Below, piece after piece: positions 14,441-64,000 of a stretch of DNA of 64,000 bases. Each line of letters opens with the position of its first letter. Position 1 is the first letter of the stretch. A program made the translations under genes and the position numbers. The stretch is taken from positions 37,043 to 101,042 of the forward strand of contig JBAZRF010000002.1 in NCBI GenBank assembly GCA_041663165.1, given 5' to 3'. The notes beneath the pieces were generated by a model. That model was not told the origin of the DNA, ran no database searches, and was given only the letters and a program-made list of their open reading frames with translations. The stretch is from Minisyncoccota bacterium. Lineage in GTDB: Bacteria > Patescibacteriota > Minisyncoccia > Phycocordibacterales > XYD1-FULL-46-19.

Positions 14441-14745
14441 TTTTTTGTTTTCCCGAAACATTTATATTGTGCGTACGTCTTTTTCCTGTGACAATTTGCG
14501 CATCTTATTTCACATTTGCTGATTTCTGCTAATACTGATTCCCAAGAATAGTGACCAGATAACATTTTGGCAACAGTTTTAAACTTACTCTTTGGATTGG
14601 TGTGGTCAAACTCTAAGACGATTGGATCATTTTCTCCACAATCAACACAAGACTTAGAAGAGAGAAATCCTAATAATTCTTCGCGCACCTTTATGCGATG
14701 TTTCTTTTGTGCTTTATATAAATCCTCTCTATGTTTATAAGGCAT
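14431..14745 (-). CDS. small HNH endonuclease; 3' end overlaps the tRNA-Arg(TCT) 5' end by 10 nt
   Basis: CVDCGENDPIVLEFDHTNPKSK...CANCHRKKT HNH/zinc-finger motif. Confidence 0.65.
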   Translation of the reverse strand: MPYKHREDLYKAQKKHRIKVREELLGFLSSKSCVDCGENDPIVLEFDHTNPKSKFKTVAKMLSGHYSWESVLAEISKCEIRCANCHRKKTYAQYKCFGKTKKPS

Positions 14746-45125: not shown

Positions 45126-46548
45126 ACCGTTTTATATCACTACCACTTTGCCCTATGTTAACGCTCCGCTTCATCTGGGGCATGCGCTTGAGTTCGTGCG
45201 CGCCGATGCTATTGCTCGATACAAAAAACTGGCCGGTTTTGATGTTTATTTCAATACCGGTACCGATGAGCATGGCAAAAAAAATTACGACAAGGCGCTT
45301 GAGAAAGGATTAAGCCCTCAGGAATTTGTTGATCAAGGGTTTGCTACTTTTCAAGACCAACTGAAAATGTTTGGGGTGAGCGCCGATATCCATTTTGTTC
45401 GAACGACTGATGCGCACCACAAATTAGCCGCCCAAGAATTTTGGCGGCGAGTGCGAGATAACGGCTACATTTACAAAAAAAATTATCAGGCTAAATATTG
45501 CGTTGGTTGTGAAAGTGAAAAAACTGATTCTGAACTAAACGACCAGGGCGAATGCCTCTTGCACCCAGGCCGACCACTCGAGCTTATTGACGAAGAAAAT
45601 TATTTTTTTAAGTACTCGGCTTTTGGCGACAAGTTGCTAAAGTTTTATGGCGAGCATCCCAATTTCGTTGTTCCGGACTGGCGCTTGAATGAAATAAAAA
45701 ATTTCGTGACCGGTGGCTTGCAAGATTTTTCGATCTCTCGCCTTAAGGCAAAAATGCCCTGGGGGATAGCCGTGCCCGATGACCCGGATCACGTGATGTA
45801 TGTGTGGTTTGACGCTCTCGTTGACTATATCTCAACCTTAGGTTGGCCCGACAGTTTAGAGAATTTTGAAAAATACTGGGTGGATGGAACGCCGACGCAA
45901 TATTGTGGTAAAGACAATAATCGTTTTCAGTCGGCAATGTGGCAAGCGATGCTCTTGGCCGCGGGGTTGCCTAATTCTCACCAGATTATTGTTAATGGCT
46001 TCATTACTGGCGAAGGGGGAGTGCGCATGTCTAAAACCTTGGGCAATGTTATTGACCCTCGCGATATTGCCAAAGAGTATGGCACCGATGCCCTTCGCTA
46101 TTTTCTACTAAGAGAGGTAAACAGCTTTGAAGATAGTCCGTTTACGATTGAACGATTTAAAGAGACCTACAATGCCGGTTTGGCTAATGGCGTTGGTAAT
46201 TTGACGAATAGAATAATGAAAATGGCTGAAACTAACCTTGACGGGCCAGTTGGAGTTGATAGTGTTGGCTATAGATTTCCTGATTATGTAAACGAATTAA
46301 TGGACCAATTCAGAATTGATCTAGCGATGAATTATGTCTGGGCTAAAATTGCCGAGCTAGATCGCGAGATTCAAGAAAAAAAACCATGGGAATCGAAAGA
46401 CAAAGAAGTTATTAAGAACTTGGCCTTGAATCTTTATCGAATCGGCTGTCTACTCAAACCCTTTATGCCAGAAACAGCAGAAAAAATTATTGAAGCTACT
46501 AGAAATAATAAAATGCCTGAAGTCCCGCTCTTTTTGCGCAAAGACTAA
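45118..46548 (+). CDS. metG: methionine--tRNA ligase (short form)
   Basis: HLGHALE (HIGH) and KMSKTLGN (KMSKS). Confidence 0.9.
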   Translation: MPKPFYITTTLPYVNAPLHLGHALEFVRADAIARYKKLAGFDVYFNTGTDEHGKKNYDKALEKGLSPQEFVDQGFATFQDQLKMFGVSADIHFVRTTDAHHKLAAQEFWRRVRDNGYIYKKNYQAKYCVGCESEKTDSELNDQGECLLHPGRPLELIDEENYFFKYSAFGDKLLKFYGEHPNFVVPDWRLNEIKNFVTGGLQDFSISRLKAKMPWGIAVPDDPDHVMYVWFDALVDYISTLGWPDSLENFEKYWVDGTPTQYCGKDNNRFQSAMWQAMLLAAGLPNSHQIIVNGFITGEGGVRMSKTLGNVIDPRDIAKEYGTDALRYFLLREVNSFEDSPFTIERFKETYNAGLANGVGNLTNRIMKMAETNLDGPVGVDSVGYRFPDYVNELMDQFRIDLAMNYVWAKIAELDREIQEKKPWESKDKEVIKNLALNLYRIGCLLKPFMPETAEKIIEATRNNKMPEVPLFLRKD

Positions 46549-46549
46549 A

Positions 46550-47371
46550 ATGATTCCGAAGTTTTTTGACGCGCATACCCACTTAAATATGCAGTTTGAA
46601 CAAGACTGGCAGGAGGTGGGCAAGCGGACAATTGAAAGTGGCACCTGGTTTGTAAATGTTGGCGCTGATGAAAAGTCGTCTAGGTTGGCACTTGAACAAG
46701 TCAAAGAACTTGATGGCGGATCTTGGTGCACCGTAGGTATTCATCCGACCGAAGGAAACGAGAGCGATTTTGAAGTAATAAAAGAATTGGCCAAAAATGA
46801 GAAGGTTGTGGCGATTGGCGAGTGCGGTTTGGAGTATTTTAAAATTGATGATGAAGAAGTAAAAAAGAGACAGTGCGAACTTTTTATTAAGCATATTGAC
46901 CTGGCGCTTGAGGTGGGGAAGCCGTTGATGATTCACTGTCGAGCTAGTTTGAATAATACGGCCGACAATCGCGGGAGCGCCGGCGTCATTGATGCCCACG
47001 AAGATGTGCTAGAAATTTTAAAGGAGTATAAGTCTCAAGTCGGGGATAAATTGCAATTTATCATGCACTTTTTTACGGGCACCTTAGAAGTGGCCAATAA
47101 ATTTGTTGAACTAGGTGGTCGTTTTTCATTTAATGGCGTAATTACCTTCACCAATCAATATGACGAAGTGATAAAAAACATTCCGCTTGATCGAATCCTG
47201 TCCGAAACCGATGCTCCATTCGTGGCGCCGGTACCGCATCGCGGCGAGCGCAACGAACCGGCCTATGTGCAATTTGTCGCTGAACACATCGCCGAATTGC
47301 GCTCCGAACCGCATGGACAGGTTTTAGCGGCTTTAGTTAAAAATGCCGAAAGATTTTACTCGCTAGGCTAA
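46550..47371 (+). CDS. tatD: TatD-family metal-dependent hydrolase
   Basis: FDAHTHL N-terminal motif. Confidence 0.8.
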   Translation: MIPKFFDAHTHLNMQFEQDWQEVGKRTIESGTWFVNVGADEKSSRLALEQVKELDGGSWCTVGIHPTEGNESDFEVIKELAKNEKVVAIGECGLEYFKIDDEEVKKRQCELFIKHIDLALEVGKPLMIHCRASLNNTADNRGSAGVIDAHEDVLEILKEYKSQVGDKLQFIMHFFTGTLEVANKFVELGGRFSFNGVITFTNQYDEVIKNIPLDRILSETDAPFVAPVPHRGERNEPAYVQFVAEHIAELRSEPHGQVLAALVKNAERFYSLG

Positions 47372-47472
47372 AAATCCCTACCCCTAGACAGATTACAAAA
47401 ACCGTGCTAGTAATGTGACCAGAAAAAAACAGGAGGAAACGGCCTCTTGTTCTGTTGAAAAGGAGAGACATC

Positions 47473-48120
47473 ATGTGGTGGCAGAAGGTTCTTGGCTGGG
47501 TTGTCTACCTGGCCGTAATCGGTGTAATGGTGGTCGTGATCAACGCCTTTGCTATCGCCGGGCATCCTGGATGGCCGACTGAGGACGTTTGGGCGGCGGT
47601 AGTATTTATGACTATTCTCTCGGCGATTGCCGGAGTGGTCATGGTTGTGCTCGGCTGGCACGGAAGGTTCGTGCTCGGCCGGACGATATGTCCCGAAGAG
47701 GTGGTGGTCGACAGTACTGGCAATATAACTCTGGTCGGCAGCTCGTGGATCTGGATCTGGCAAAGGCTCAGTTGCCATATCTACAAGATGAAGGGCCAGA
47801 CCTTCTCTTTGAGACTCAAGCCGGTGACGGTCGCTGGTGGCCCGAAGCTTCGCGAGCTTCGTTACTGGGTCACAATCAGTCCGGTCGTTGACGGTCGTCT
47901 CAAGGACCTTCTTGGTTCGCAGTTCCCCGATTGGCAGCGCGAGGCAAAGAGAATGTTATACGATATGAACGAAGAGCTTTGCCGTAATCTTGGGAAGTTC
48001 TTCAACCCCTTGCGCGAAGAACAGCAGCAAGAGTTCTTCGCGCTCGTCTCGGCCTGGCTTGCCGGGAAACTCTCGCCCGGCCTTAGGTGTGAGAAGGCCC
48101 GATTTGGCCTGTTCTCCTGA
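47473..48120 (+). CDS. GC-rich hypothetical membrane protein (2 N-terminal TM + soluble domain), orphan cassette D
   Basis: SD AGGAGA 6 nt before ATG; ~58% GC; hairpin terminator directly after. Confidence 0.5.
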   Translation: MWWQKVLGWVVYLAVIGVMVVVINAFAIAGHPGWPTEDVWAAVVFMTILSAIAGVVMVVLGWHGRFVLGRTICPEEVVVDSTGNITLVGSSWIWIWQRLSCHIYKMKGQTFSLRLKPVTVAGGPKLRELRYWVTISPVVDGRLKDLLGSQFPDWQREAKRMLYDMNEELCRNLGKFFNPLREEQQQEFFALVSAWLAGKLSPGLRCEKARFGLFS

Positions 48121-48736: not shown

Positions 48737-49219
48737 ATGTATTTAAATAAAGCTTTTATTCTTGGTAACTTAACTCGTGATCCTGAGAAGCGAGCCTTGC
48801 CCAGTGGTGCCGCTGTCACCAGTTTTTCGATTGCGACCACGCGTGTTTATAAGGATAAGAATGGGGTTAAGCAAGAGGACACACAATATCACAACATTGT
48901 CGCTTTTGGTCCGCAGGCTGAGACGATTGCTCAATATATGAAAAAGGGGAGTTCGATTTTAGTTGAAGGACGAATCCAGACACGCAGTTGGGATGCGCCG
49001 GATGGCACAAAAAAGTATCGTACCGAAATTGTTGTTGACGCCTTTCAGTTCGGACCAAAGCGGGACGGCTCGATAAGCTCACCCCAAACCGGTGGTTATG
49101 AACCAAGCGGGGGAGTAAGCTCAGCCGGAGCAACAAAGAATCCCGTCAGCCAGCTACCCGAATTAGAGACCATTCAGTATCCCGAAGAAGAAATTAATCC
49201 TGACGATATCCCATTCTAA
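48737..49219 (+). CDS. ssb: single-stranded DNA-binding protein
   Basis: OB-fold core, C-terminal DDIPF tail. Confidence 0.9.
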   Translation: MYLNKAFILGNLTRDPEKRALPSGAAVTSFSIATTRVYKDKNGVKQEDTQYHNIVAFGPQAETIAQYMKKGSSILVEGRIQTRSWDAPDGTKKYRTEIVVDAFQFGPKRDGSISSPQTGGYEPSGGVSSAGATKNPVSQLPELETIQYPEEEINPDDIPF

Positions 49220-49235
49220 ATTTTAAATAAATATT

Positions 49236-49460
49236 ATGATGATCAAAAAAACAAATAGCCTTCGCCAATGTCAGTTTTGTACCAACAACGTTAAGGGTGT
49301 GGACTATAAGGATGTGGAATTATTGAAGAACTATCTTGATACCCACATGCGCATCAGTAAACATCGCAAGACTGGTGTCTGTGCCAAACATCAGCGTTCT
49401 CTCGGCACCGCCATCAAGCGCGCTCGCACCCTCGGTCTCTTGCCTTACTTGGCCGGCTAA
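49236..49460 (+). CDS. rpsR: 30S ribosomal protein S18
   Basis: CQFC, VDYKDVELLKNY, ISKHRKTG. Confidence 0.9.
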   Translation: MMIKKTNSLRQCQFCTNNVKGVDYKDVELLKNYLDTHMRISKHRKTGVCAKHQRSLGTAIKRARTLGLLPYLAG

Positions 49461-49494
49461 AGGCGTTCGGCCTACGTTCAGTTAAACAACACAG

Positions 49495-49520
49495 AAAACC
49501 GTTCCCGCGAACGGTTTTCT
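49495..49520 (+). terminator. terminator AAAACCGTTC-CCGC-GAACGGTTTT after rpsR
   Basis: perfect 10-bp stem. Confidence 0.8.
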
Positions 49521-49653
49521 TACGCTCCGCGACGGCCATTTCGCCGTAGTTTTTCGCTACGCTCAAAACTTTTACAACGGCGAAAACCATGCTGGCCGTA
49601 GCTCCGCGAGGTTGTTTAACTGAACAAGGCCTCGCTTGGTTGCAAATCACAAT

Positions 49654-49681
49654 TTGACGTATATTCTCTTTTTGTTAAAAT
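49654..49681 (+). promoter_or_regulatory. promoter P1 TTGACG-16-TAAAAT in gene-free region
   Basis: hexamers and spacing read directly. Confidence 0.45.
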
Positions 49682-49826
49682 GAAATCAGAAGGAATCGAC
49701 GCACCTGTTAAAGTTTAACAACGATTCCGATGGCCAATCCTTTTCATAAGGATAAGCCCACAAAAGAAACATCGTCCCGCTTGGCTTGGCCAGGGGACGG
49801 TTGTTTTATTTATCCACAACCACCCC

Positions 49827-49854
49827 TTGACGGTTGTTTTGGTTTTGCTAAGAT
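49827..49854 (+). promoter_or_regulatory. promoter P2 TTGACG-16-TAAGAT
   Basis: same architecture as P1, 173 nt downstream. Confidence 0.45.
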
Positions 49855-49860
49855 GTAATC

Positions 49861-50107
49861 AGGTCTTGTACACATCGTGTGGTTTGACAAAAAGCTTTCG
49901 ACTCTTCGAACTGATTGTTACACGGATCCTTGCCATCTTGCAGGAGGCCGCGCACCGAGTGCACGCATCGTCGCCGATACAATCCCTGGCACGGGGAAAC
50001 CAATCTCGTTCGACAGAACGCCGACCGACGCCGTAGCTTCTCGTCACTTCCACTTCGCATTGCCACCCCAAGGTTCGTCCCGGGTGGTTTCGCTTTGAAT
50101 TTTTTTC
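49861..50107 (+). ncRNA. candidate GC-rich small RNA transcribed from P2 and ending at hairpin CCACCC...GGGTGG plus T-tract; function unknown
   Basis: no ORF with SD; open frames on both strands typical of GC-rich non-coding sequence; flanked by promoter and terminator-like signals. Confidence 0.3.
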
Positions 50108-50320
50108 ACCTTGTTTTTTGAATAACTAAGTGTTAAAAGATAAGTAGAAGCTGGCAGATGTTTCTGCCGGCAAATGAACACGGCCATAGCGAGCCGCTAC
50201 CTTACGAAAGGAGAAATCGCGATGGGAATAGACAAGTTACACCTGCACTTCGAGAGAGGAGCAAAAAATTTTCGCTGGAAAATTTTAAGGCGAGGTTTTT
50301 AAGCGGGAGCAACCGAGCGC

Positions 50321-50890
50321 CTAGTTAACTCGTTCCACATACTCTCCCGTATCAGTATTGATTCGTAAGACGTCGCCCTCGTTAACAAACATCGGGACGT
50401 TGACAGTGAAGCCGGTTTCGACTGTCACTTGTTTAAGCCCGCCTTGGACGGTGTTGCCCTTAACGGCTGGGGCCGCTTCAGTTACTTTAAGTTCAACCTT
50501 GATCGGCACCTCAACGCCGATAATTTTATCTTGAAAAGAAATAAGATCGACAACGGTGTTTTGTTTAACAAAATGGATTTGCTCGCCAACCTGCTCACTG
50601 TCGAGCTCAAAGCGTTTGCCCGGATCCTTTTCTTCGCAGAACCAATACTTGCCCTTGGTCTCATAAAGATATTTTATTTTACGCTTCTCCAGCTCGGCCT
50701 CTTCGGCTTTCTCGCTTTGGTGAAAAGAAATTTCCATTACTTTGCCGGTGAGCAGATTCTTCATTTTGACGGCGTTAACCGGCTTGCGCTGTTGTTTGCG
50801 AAAGACATGCGAGGTCAGAACCACAAAAGGGGACCCATCATAGACGATAACTTTTCGCTCTTTAATTTCGTTATATTCTAACATACCCAA
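50321..50890 (-). CDS. efp: elongation factor P
   Basis: KPGKGQAF-equivalent region, three OB domains; probable start at MLEYNE. Confidence 0.85.
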   Translation of the reverse strand: MGMLEYNEIKERKVIVYDGSPFVVLTSHVFRKQQRKPVNAVKMKNLLTGKVMEISFHQSEKAEEAELEKRKIKYLYETKGKYWFCEEKDPGKRFELDSEQVGEQIHFVKQNTVVDLISFQDKIIGVEVPIKVELKVTEAAPAVKGNTVQGGLKQVTVETGFTVNVPMFVNEGDVLRINTDTGEYVERVN

Positions 50891-55522: not shown

Positions 55523-55552
55523 ATTTTGTTCAAGGGGCCAAGCCTTAAAAAT

Positions 55553-55581
55553 TTGACCAAAAATGCTTTTTGGTATAGAAT
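55553..55581 (+). promoter_or_regulatory. promoter TTGACC-17-TAGAAT starting a ~320-nt leader of the surface protein gene; second candidate TTGTTT-17-TATAAT at 55631-55659
   Basis: sequence reading. Confidence 0.5.
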
Positions 55582-55904
55582 GCGAGCACCTGTTTTGGGG
55601 TAGAAAAATAGTTATCCACAAACACTTTTTTGTTTCCGTCGAGACGGGGGAGTATAATGTTGAACGAGGGTCGTTGACAACCGAATATTCTTTTTACGGT
55701 TTAAAAACGATCTGTTAATTATTGGTAAAATTGTTTCGCTGAAGGCTGGTCGATAAGCTTTATCGAAACGCTCTGTTGTGCCTCTCGTTGTCAACAGGTA
55801 GCTAGTAATAATTTTCTTTATTATTTACCTGTTGGCGTCGAGGTGTACGAACCAACAAATTATTAGCGATTACAAGTTTAGTATTATTAAGTAAATTATT
55901 AATC

Positions 55905-62961: not shown

Positions 62962-63003
62962 AACCCGCCGTCAAGGTATCCACCTTGACGGCGGGTTCTT
63001 TTC
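62962..63003 (+). terminator. strong terminator: 15-bp perfect stem AACCCGCCGTCAAGG...CCTTGACGGCGGGTT plus CTTTTCG
   Basis: sequence reading. Confidence 0.85.
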
Positions 63004-63092
63004 GTATATAATAGGGAGGTCGGTATGAATAGAGAAATTAACCCTAAAATCAAGCGGCCAAGATAGCTCGGTTTTTCGAGCCGTCCCAGAAC

Positions 63093-63117
63093 CCGCTTGG
63101 CCAAAGCGGTTTTTTTG
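63093..63117 (+). terminator. second terminator CCGCTTGG-CCAAAGCGG TTTTTTT, 90 nt downstream of the first
   Basis: sequence reading. Confidence 0.7.
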
Positions 63118-63289
63118 ATAGAAAATTCCAATCTTTGACAACTGAATTCCAGTACGACAATTATATTCCAATTGTTGGGGTCTTTGAATTGTCGGAGCTG
63201 GGTAGGTAGAAAGCTGTATGTTCAAACACGAAAGTGTAAGAGCAAATAGAGAAATAATTAAGAAAATGGTTTTTAAGTTTCCTGTTAGG

Positions 63290-64000
<711 letters not shown>

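Follow-up and report, generated by a model that had tools for sequence, protein, structure and literature searches.

Bacteria of the candidate phyla radiation (CPR) have tiny genomes with almost no non-coding space, and an 860-nucleotide (nt) stretch without open reading frames (ORFs) is therefore among the few concrete places in them where RNA-based regulation can be sought. Such a stretch lies between the converging genes rpsR (ribosomal protein S18) and efp (elongation factor P, EF-P), at positions 49461-50320 of the 64,000 nt of contig JBAZRF010000002.1 (Minisyncoccota bacterium, Paceibacteria) that were analysed here and are called the window below. The question is what this gap contains. 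In our view it is probably a small-RNA island of independent promoter-to-terminator units, and would then be a new, lineage-restricted small-RNA locus. Two units, M1 and M2, carry the argument; they are flanked by a branched hairpin, M0, on the rpsR side and by a stretch called M3 on the efp side. M1 is, on comparative grounds, a well-supported new structured RNA gene. M2 appears to be a real and conserved unit that, like M1, runs from its own promoter to its own terminator, but a function of its RNA is uncertain. The promoters, terminators, folds, homologues and relative rates of change, and the absence of a coding signal, are read from sequence and its comparison between genomes, and we infer from them that the units are transcribed.

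Both units appear to have a promoter of their own, as a small-RNA gene should, of a consensus-like sigma-70 type with a TG-extended -10 element. An earlier reading made from the letters alone, without database searches (the sequence-only reading), had noticed two promoters of the same architecture, and both are present on the plus strand: TTGACG-16-TAAAAT at 49654-49681 for M1, with the TG at 49673-49674 and 10 of 12 consensus matches, and TTGACG-16-TAAGAT at 49827-49854 for M2, with the TG at 49846-49847. A 17-mer around the -10 element and the start, TGNTANRATGNAATCAG, occurs in the window only at these two promoters (expected 0.07). A promoter scan of 49200-50600 gave three promoter-like sites against 1.2 ± 1.4 in shuffled sequences, and found no minus-strand promoter in the gap. 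The -10 element stands at a fixed distance in eight copies of M1 and four copies of M2.

M1 (49687-49813, plus strand) is predicted to be a small RNA of about 125 nt with two hairpins, P1 (49692-49728) and P2 (49732-49758), an A-rich linker (49759-49772) and a terminator hairpin with a U-tract (49766-49813). The hairpins proposed beforehand for the first RNA (GGAATCG/CGATTCC and GTCCC/GGGAC) are real: the window copy folds with a z-score (z) of -3.9 to -4.2 against shuffles, and -4.2 for 49687-49813. The same transcript had been called GC-rich, which it is not, because its GC content is 45%. About 100 related loci, numbered here with an L, were gathered using EF-P, and among them and the window M1 is found in eight copies from seven lineages, always downstream of rpsR. 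Two covariance models built here, R1 and R2, recover the copies in L174, L003, L168, L169/L171, L001 and L002, and nowhere else in the approximately 100 loci. In all eight copies TGnTAnAnT stands 7-8 nt upstream of CAGAAGG or GACAGG, and all copies end in a GC stem and a U-tract. Six copies folded singly as trimmed transcripts adopt the same P1/P2/terminator shape, with z for four of them between -4.2 and -6.7, and P2 is built from at least five different sequence solutions. The sequence-only reading had proposed a covariation analysis with homologous loci, and this analysis finds compensatory changes in the M1 fold: pairing holds in 73.9% of the cells of the model-fitted alignment and falls to 35-48% once partners are slid, both sides have changed in 13 of 34 pairs, and none of 500 shuffles reaches the observed paired percentage and one of 500 the covariation score, counts that come from only eight related sequences in an alignment fitted to the structure. 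M1 identity is also higher than efp third-codon identity in each pair tested (0.83 vs 0.56, 0.82 vs 0.64, 0.65 vs 0.53), and by this comparison M1 is changing more slowly than synonymous sites. Two further candidates within M1 were rejected. A conserved peptide beginning MTWQNRR is found in L001 and L002, lacks a start codon in L003 and lacks the sequence in the window and L174, and its lengths differ; a 16-nt match of the linker to 14696-14711 (E 0.045) is same-sense and not antisense.

The A-rich linker, GC stem and U-tract of M1 can be read as a terminator in both directions, and M1 would therefore also end the converging efp transcript. In L174, L003 and L168, M1 starts 1-9 nt past the rpsR stop, its terminator abuts the efp stop, and the -35-like TTGCCT is made of the last S18 codons (Leu-Pro-Tyr); wherever M1 is the sole content of the gap in this way, it would have to end efp as well. 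These arrangements favour a purely cis-acting explanation, according to which M1 is a structured 3' untranslated region and a shared two-way rpsR/efp terminator, the promoters send antisense or colliding transcription into efp-recA with the terminators as adjustable gates, and the RNA sequence is irrelevant. All units are indeed oriented toward efp, and a sequence-neutral M2 body (see below) suits a role for transcription itself. Against this, P1 and P2 are kept by compensatory change and are not needed by a terminator, each unit's own conserved terminator would block interference, and the window copy of M1 is set apart from rpsR by a strong terminator (49493-49520) and has a full promoter of its own. 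We consider this explanation improbable. Small RNAs derived from 3' ends, with their own promoter in or after the upstream gene, are known from DapZ and MicL, and the M1 copies of L174, L003 and L168 resemble them in starting just after the rpsR stop, in the -35-like hexamer within S18 codons and in the use of the operon terminator. The window copy differs, since M0 and the strong terminator separate it from rpsR and its promoter is complete and intergenic.

M2 (49858-50106, plus strand) would be a non-coding transcript of about 245-250 nt. Its start, placed from the position of the -10 element, begins AATCAG like that of M1. Four copies exist in three genomes, namely those of the window, L001 and L002, the last with two in tandem (L002a and L002b); the window and L002a copies are called type A, those of L001 and L002b type B. 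Transcription would be set by a module of 53 nt that contains, in order, TTATCCACA, a hairpin, a T-rich run, the extended -10 and GTAATCAG (the AATCAG start). The hairpin is terminator-like and lies at 49817-49847 of the plus strand (CAACC at 49817-49821, GGTTG at 49832-49836, then the T-rich run), and the -35 hexamer of M2 falls within its loop and 3' arm, which the sequence-only reading had overlooked. The stem differs in each lineage with its complementarity kept (CAACC/GGTTG, AGCCCTC/GAGGGCT, AACCCC/GGGGTT, GGCCCC/GGGGTT). Identity of the module is 75-98% among the four copies, and DNA identity of efp, recA and rpsR is 68-78% between the window and the others and 83-90% between L001 and L002; by this measure the conservation of the module equals or exceeds that of the neighbouring genes. 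In L169-171 an M2-type module drives M1 directly, and M1 and M2 would therefore be sibling cassettes under one promoter type.

The first element of the module, TTATCCACA at 49810-49818 of the plus strand, matches perfectly what we take to be the DnaA-box consensus. This box precedes the inferred start of M2 by about 50 to 42 nt and had gone unnoticed in the earlier description of the second promoter, which it adjoins as a predicted box matching TTATNCACA. It is unchanged in six of six sequenced module copies (window, L001, two in L002, and L169-171), next to a hairpin stem that varies. Perfect TTATCCACA sites occur at only two places in the window, 49810-49818 and 55612-55620, and both are found in ORF-free gaps, on the promoter strand and 39-41 nt upstream of a -10 element. 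A regulatory box is the simplest reading of such a site. An origin or terminus of replication was considered and rejected: GC skew stays positive from one end of the window to the other and does not switch at 49-50 kilobases (kb), and the DnaA boxes are not clustered. Promoters regulated through DnaA boxes are known from the autoregulation of dnaA and from the DnaA regulon of B. subtilis. The predicted site resembles these in being a perfect 9-mer just upstream of the -35 element that stays invariant amid changing neighbours, and differs from them in being a single box and not a cluster, and in that a non-coding unit would be controlled.

Two other places in the window have comparable elements. 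The second perfect box lies in another long gap without ORFs (55523-55904; 382 nt; GC content 36%), which also has promoter-like sites. A TATAAT at 55653 follows the box at a distance of 41 nt, and the gap precedes a gene whose product has a peptidoglycan-binding domain. Upstream of the 23S ribosomal RNA (rRNA) gene, of which the window contains the start (63283-64000), a small promoter-to-terminator unit at 62962-63115 shares the terminator-plus-promoter layout of the M2 module: a 16-bp hairpin with a TTGACG -35 in its 3' arm is followed by TATAAT, by GGGAGG with a 13-codon ORF, and by a terminator at 63093-63109. The rRNA genes appear to be unlinked, because no 16S gene is found upstream of the 23S gene within the window.

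At its other end M2 closes with a terminator hairpin at 50062-50106 of the plus strand, in which CCACCC (50063-50068) pairs with GGGTGG (50082-50087) and interrupted T runs follow to 50106. This hairpin is homologous to the (A/G)CCGCCC...GGGCGG of the other three copies, with a compensatory double change from G-C to A-U in the window. The features of an intrinsic terminator, a GC-rich hairpin and a T-rich tail, are thus found in four of four copies, the window copy having a long loop and interrupted T runs; a simple terminator scan passed over it, since its loop exceeds 8 nt. The sequence-only reading had described the second RNA as about 250 nt long with about 60% GC, ending at CCACCC/GGGTGG. 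Length and end hold at about 245-250 nt, but GC content is 53% overall, and only the core at 49900-50099 reaches 58%.

Between these conserved ends the M2 copies share much less. In type A, two islands on the plus strand could form a helix that closes the RNA: a 5' island, GTGTGGTTTGACAAAAAGCTT (49877-49897), is conserved in L002a, and of the first 22 nt of a 3' island, ACGCCGTAGCTTCTCGTCACTTCCAC (50028-50053), 18 are identical to L002a. The islands are complementary in both type A copies, with a duplex energy of -13.0 kcal/mol in the window, which 10 of 500 shuffles equal, and of -19.6 kcal/mol in L002a, which none of 500 equals, and outside them the two bodies are unalignable. The type B copies have common invariant blocks of up to 19 nt, and pairs that are changed on both sides remain paired in 8 of 12 cases if the fold of L002b is transferred to L001 and in 5 of 10 in the reverse direction, a count from two sequences. 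The three copies other than that of the window fold with z of -1.8, -2.4 and -3.9, the last two values being those of type B (L001 and L002b). CGCATC is the only 6-mer common to all four bodies.

The GC-rich stretch, open in several frames, could also be the remnant of a gene. The sequence-only reading had itself raised the alternative of a decayed GC-rich cassette; a wider form of it would be a dying or very small coding cassette, with products in the 25-codon ORF that starts at GTG 49959 or the 26-codon ORF at 50222-50302. Five ORFs of 68-73 amino acids (aa), in both directions, do overlap M2. It had also been said that no start is preceded by a Shine-Dalgarno sequence, which is nearly true: AGGAGG (49941-49946) stands 11 nt before the GTG at 49959, which opens an unconserved frame, and a better AAAGGAG-8-ATG is found at 50222-50302, in M3. 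Pfam and PADLOC scans of eight ORFs gave no matches, and the translations of the five M2 ORFs, joined, had no match at E<=0.1 among 5.8 billion proteins. Comparison of the homologous units by tblastx gave the same weak scores in all frames with no frame preference, and the short ORFs behind Shine-Dalgarno sequences have no counterpart in any homologous unit. With neither protein matches nor frame-specific conservation, the decayed cassette has no support, the coding reading is largely refuted for M2, and we regard such a cassette as very unlikely. A type I toxin-antitoxin system, with a short hydrophobic toxin ORF and an overlapping antisense RNA, is not indicated either: the same short ORFs are hydrophilic, basic and unconserved, and no minus-strand promoter was found in the gap.

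It could also be asked whether one of the units is a universal RNA (RNase P RNA, 6S RNA, signal recognition particle (SRP) RNA or transfer-messenger RNA (tmRNA)) that has diverged so far in the CPR that Rfam models do not recognise it. The size range would fit 6S or SRP RNA, and a weak ACAGAAC match had been seen beforehand. A cmscan of 49400-50400 against Rfam 15, a check proposed in advance, gave no match at the gathering score and, at E<=10, only four chance-level matches of 10-17 bits; nothing relevant was found in the homologous gaps of L001-L003 and in ten pattern-matched contigs, and ARAGORN found no tmRNA. The earlier statement that this is not an obvious known RNA is thereby borne out. 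Half of the close relatives lack the units, and M2 copies cannot be aligned between species, which is incompatible with an essential, universally conserved RNA. A hidden member of these families is hardly credible. Integron attC sites, retrons, CRISPR or TIGR arrays, group II introns and the guide RNAs of insertion sequences were considered and rejected; the partner gene or repeats are absent and there is no Rfam match.

The strongest competitor to the small-RNA island comes from the site itself, and here the neighbouring genes matter. On the left, rpsR (49236-49460, plus strand; PF01084, E 3e-20) is the last gene of an rpsF-ssb-rpsR operon, and on the right efp (50321-50890, minus strand; PF09285, PF08207 and PF01132) closes a recA-efp operon and converges on rpsR; with these identities from Pfam, the long gap of 860 nt between convergent genes that had been described earlier is confirmed, and it is the largest ORF-free gap in the window. 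The recA-efp/rpsR-ssb arrangement is conserved across the related loci, with synteny to ssb and S6 kept in all of them, but the gap is not. The genes abut, with 0-17 nt between them, in L004, L005, L006, L009, L172/173, L175, L177 and L178/179. A 65-nt hairpin fills the gap in L176, M1 alone in L174, L003 and L168 (138-156 nt), the module and M1 in L169-171 (198 nt), and the left part of M0 alone in L166/167 (165 nt). L001 and L002 have ORF-free modules over 741 and 1198 nt, and in L007 and more distant genomes unrelated protein genes are found instead. The gap is thus a site of variable insertions that many close relatives leave empty, a feature missed by the sequence-only reading. On a rough tree of EF-P and S18, lineages with M1 fall into two subclades and are interleaved with empty ones. 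The sequence types of M1 match this tree (window with L174, L003 with L168, L001 with L002), and M1 would therefore be an old element that has been lost repeatedly at an insertion-tolerant site.

M0 follows directly after the rpsR stop (49461-49637, plus strand, 177 nt) as a branched hairpin with outer stems of 49461-49490 and 49611-49637, a minimum free energy of -83.4 kcal/mol and a z of -8.7, and it too was missed in the earlier description. Enclosed in it are a second long hairpin and the terminator of rpsR, a two-way intrinsic terminator at 49493-49520 (AGAAAACCGTTC-CCGC-GAACGGTTTTCT) with a perfect 12-bp stem and flanking A and T runs. Its terminal inverted repeats are 15 nt long and perfect (49476-49490 and 49611-49625), and extend into longer stems. 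L002 has a full copy that has diverged to 76% identity with compensatory changes, and over its left 95 nt M0 reaches 95.8% identity to L166/L167, where the flanking genes are only 77-82% identical; this near-identity suggests recent exchange or very strong constraint. Miniature inverted-repeat elements, such as the Correia elements of Neisseria and ERIC and BIME of enterobacteria, are similar to M0, and to M0 only, in a length of about 150-180 nt, perfect terminal inverted repeats, extreme predicted hairpin stability, a position right after a gene and near-identity between genomes that are otherwise about 80% identical. M0 differs from them in that there is one copy in 64 kb, with no clear target-site duplication, and in that the L002 copy has diverged in step with its genome; of the marks of such an element the terminal inverted repeats are present, and multiple copies of M0 or of the island were not found within the 64-kb window.

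M3 (50107-50320, plus strand) makes up the last 214 nt before the efp stop and has hairpins (z -3.1 on the plus strand, -1.8 on the minus strand) and the 26-codon ORF at 50222-50302 of the plus strand (MGIDKLHLHFERGAKNFRWKILRRGF), which has AAAGGAG 8 nt before its ATG. It may encode a genuine small protein or have arisen by chance; no homologue was found in any of the gathered loci. The gap of L002 (4562-5759, 1198 nt) is an observation of its own: about 58 nt at one end, the terminator hairpin included, recur in inverted orientation at the other, and it looks as if the modules there were inserted into one long palindromic two-way terminator.

Taken together, these features make up the main rival, which holds that most of the island, with the exception of M1, is tolerated insertion debris. 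The space between two converging essential operons would be a safe landing place that has gathered pieces rich in hairpins or resembling terminators and promoters. Small mobile elements may have brought them, or insertions nested within an ancestral palindromic terminator, and they may be transcribed into RNAs without a function of their own. The high variability of the site, with 0-17 nt in many close relatives and unrelated protein genes in distant ones, agrees with it, as do gap ends that are complementary in the window and in L002 (there with arms of 58 nt), the inverted repeats of M0 and its identity to L166 far above the roughly 80% of its flanks, and M3, for which no homologue was found in any gathered locus. 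Several observations on M1 and M2 also weigh against our own reading. The window copy of M2 folds on the plus strand no better than shuffles (z +0.58), and its body has near-random identity to the other copies; the bodies of L001 and L002b, at 0.57-0.60, are no more alike than efp third positions (0.56), which is drift at the synonymous rate. There is a single predicted DnaA box per promoter, the two-way terminator suffices to explain the A-rich linker of M1, and the M1 covariation counts come from the eight related sequences given above. About half of the lineages in the clade have abutting genes and no M1, which is therefore dispensable, and a search for its targets gave no consistent duplex with the start regions of rpsF, ssb, rpsR, efp and recA across the seven lineages.

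On the other side, the promoter, fold and compensatory changes of M1 are kept in seven lineages and M1 changes more slowly than synonymous sites, and the M2 module is conserved at least as well as coding DNA; both speak against debris. A mobile origin was rejected as well: when the gap was compared with the window by blastn, none of its parts recurred within the 64 kb, and distant blastn searches of phage and plasmid collections gave no match. A metagenome scan with the DnaA-box-plus-promoter pattern returned 83 stretches of which two were true, L121, which is the strain of the window (99.95% identical), and L089, which is on the same contig as L001, and it found the module only within the clade. 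Pattern searches of a viral collection gave one chance match to a phage promoter, and none for the M1 loop. On balance, debris is an unlikely explanation of the gap, the cis-acting role ranks next to it, and coding or known-RNA explanations are largely excluded.

If the gap is a small-RNA island, as we favour, its units might work as follows. At M1, the extended -10 promoter of the sigma-70 type just after rpsR would initiate at about CAGAAGG, and the RNA would fold P1 and P2, with the A-rich stretch, GC stem and U-tract as a bidirectional terminator. In the control module of M2, the DnaA box would be followed by the terminator hairpin, which would insulate the unit from upstream transcription, and by the extended -10, giving an RNA whose core changes freely within a conserved frame made of the 5' end, the helix that closes 5' on 3', and the terminator. 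The RNAs may act in trans by base pairing or protein binding. We infer further that DnaA may bind the box, which would tie the output of M2, and of M1 in L169-171, to the state of the replication initiator. A more speculative extension, for which we would claim little confidence, is that the module of DnaA box, terminator and extended -10 is a portable switch for interchangeable RNA cassettes (M1, M2 type A, type B), each with a fixed frame of 5' end, closing helix and terminator, a freely diversifying core and an output tied to the replication initiator, or that the cores are under diversifying selection, for example in conflict with phages or host cells.

Sibling small RNAs under one regulator-controlled promoter are known from the csRNAs of streptococci (controlled by CiaR), Qrr1-5 of Vibrio and LhrC1-5 of Listeria. 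These are likewise short non-coding units, often in tandem in intergenic regions, each with its own promoter and intrinsic terminator, and their near-identical promoters have the site of one regulator, as the invariant TTATCCACA is predicted to be here. In those families a common seed or body is retained, but in the units described here the bodies do not align, and conservation is limited to the 5' end, the closing helix and the terminator. The regulator would differ too: DnaA is the presumed one, and control of small-RNA families by DnaA is not known. No paper on regulatory RNAs of CPR/Patescibacteria was found in the literature library searched. M1 offers a testable new RNA family, and the invariant box in the common module a testable link from replication control to non-coding transcription. 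The locus also shows fast gain, rearrangement and loss of units between two essential operons, and if the units are inert it still documents an insertion hotspot and a compact terminator-plus-promoter architecture.

It is worth adding what other genomes and a nearby position hold in the way of inserted genes. The gaps of L007 (4562-5452), L014, L017, L019, L022, L037 and L039 contain mutually unrelated protein genes, among them a 210-aa membrane-like ORF in L007 and an AAA-type kinase-like ORF in L017 and L019. In the window, an ORF of 221 aa (47455-48120, plus strand; GC-rich at 54-57%, with predicted membrane segments and no Pfam match) lies between a TatD-like gene (46490-47371) and rpsF. 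TatD directly adjoins S6 in L169, L172 and L177, and L176 has an unrelated ORF of 205 aa at this place; the ORFs at 47455-48120, in L176 and in the L007 gap have no mutual similarity. The rpsF-ssb-rpsR operon thus seems to be bordered here by a further point of variable insertion.

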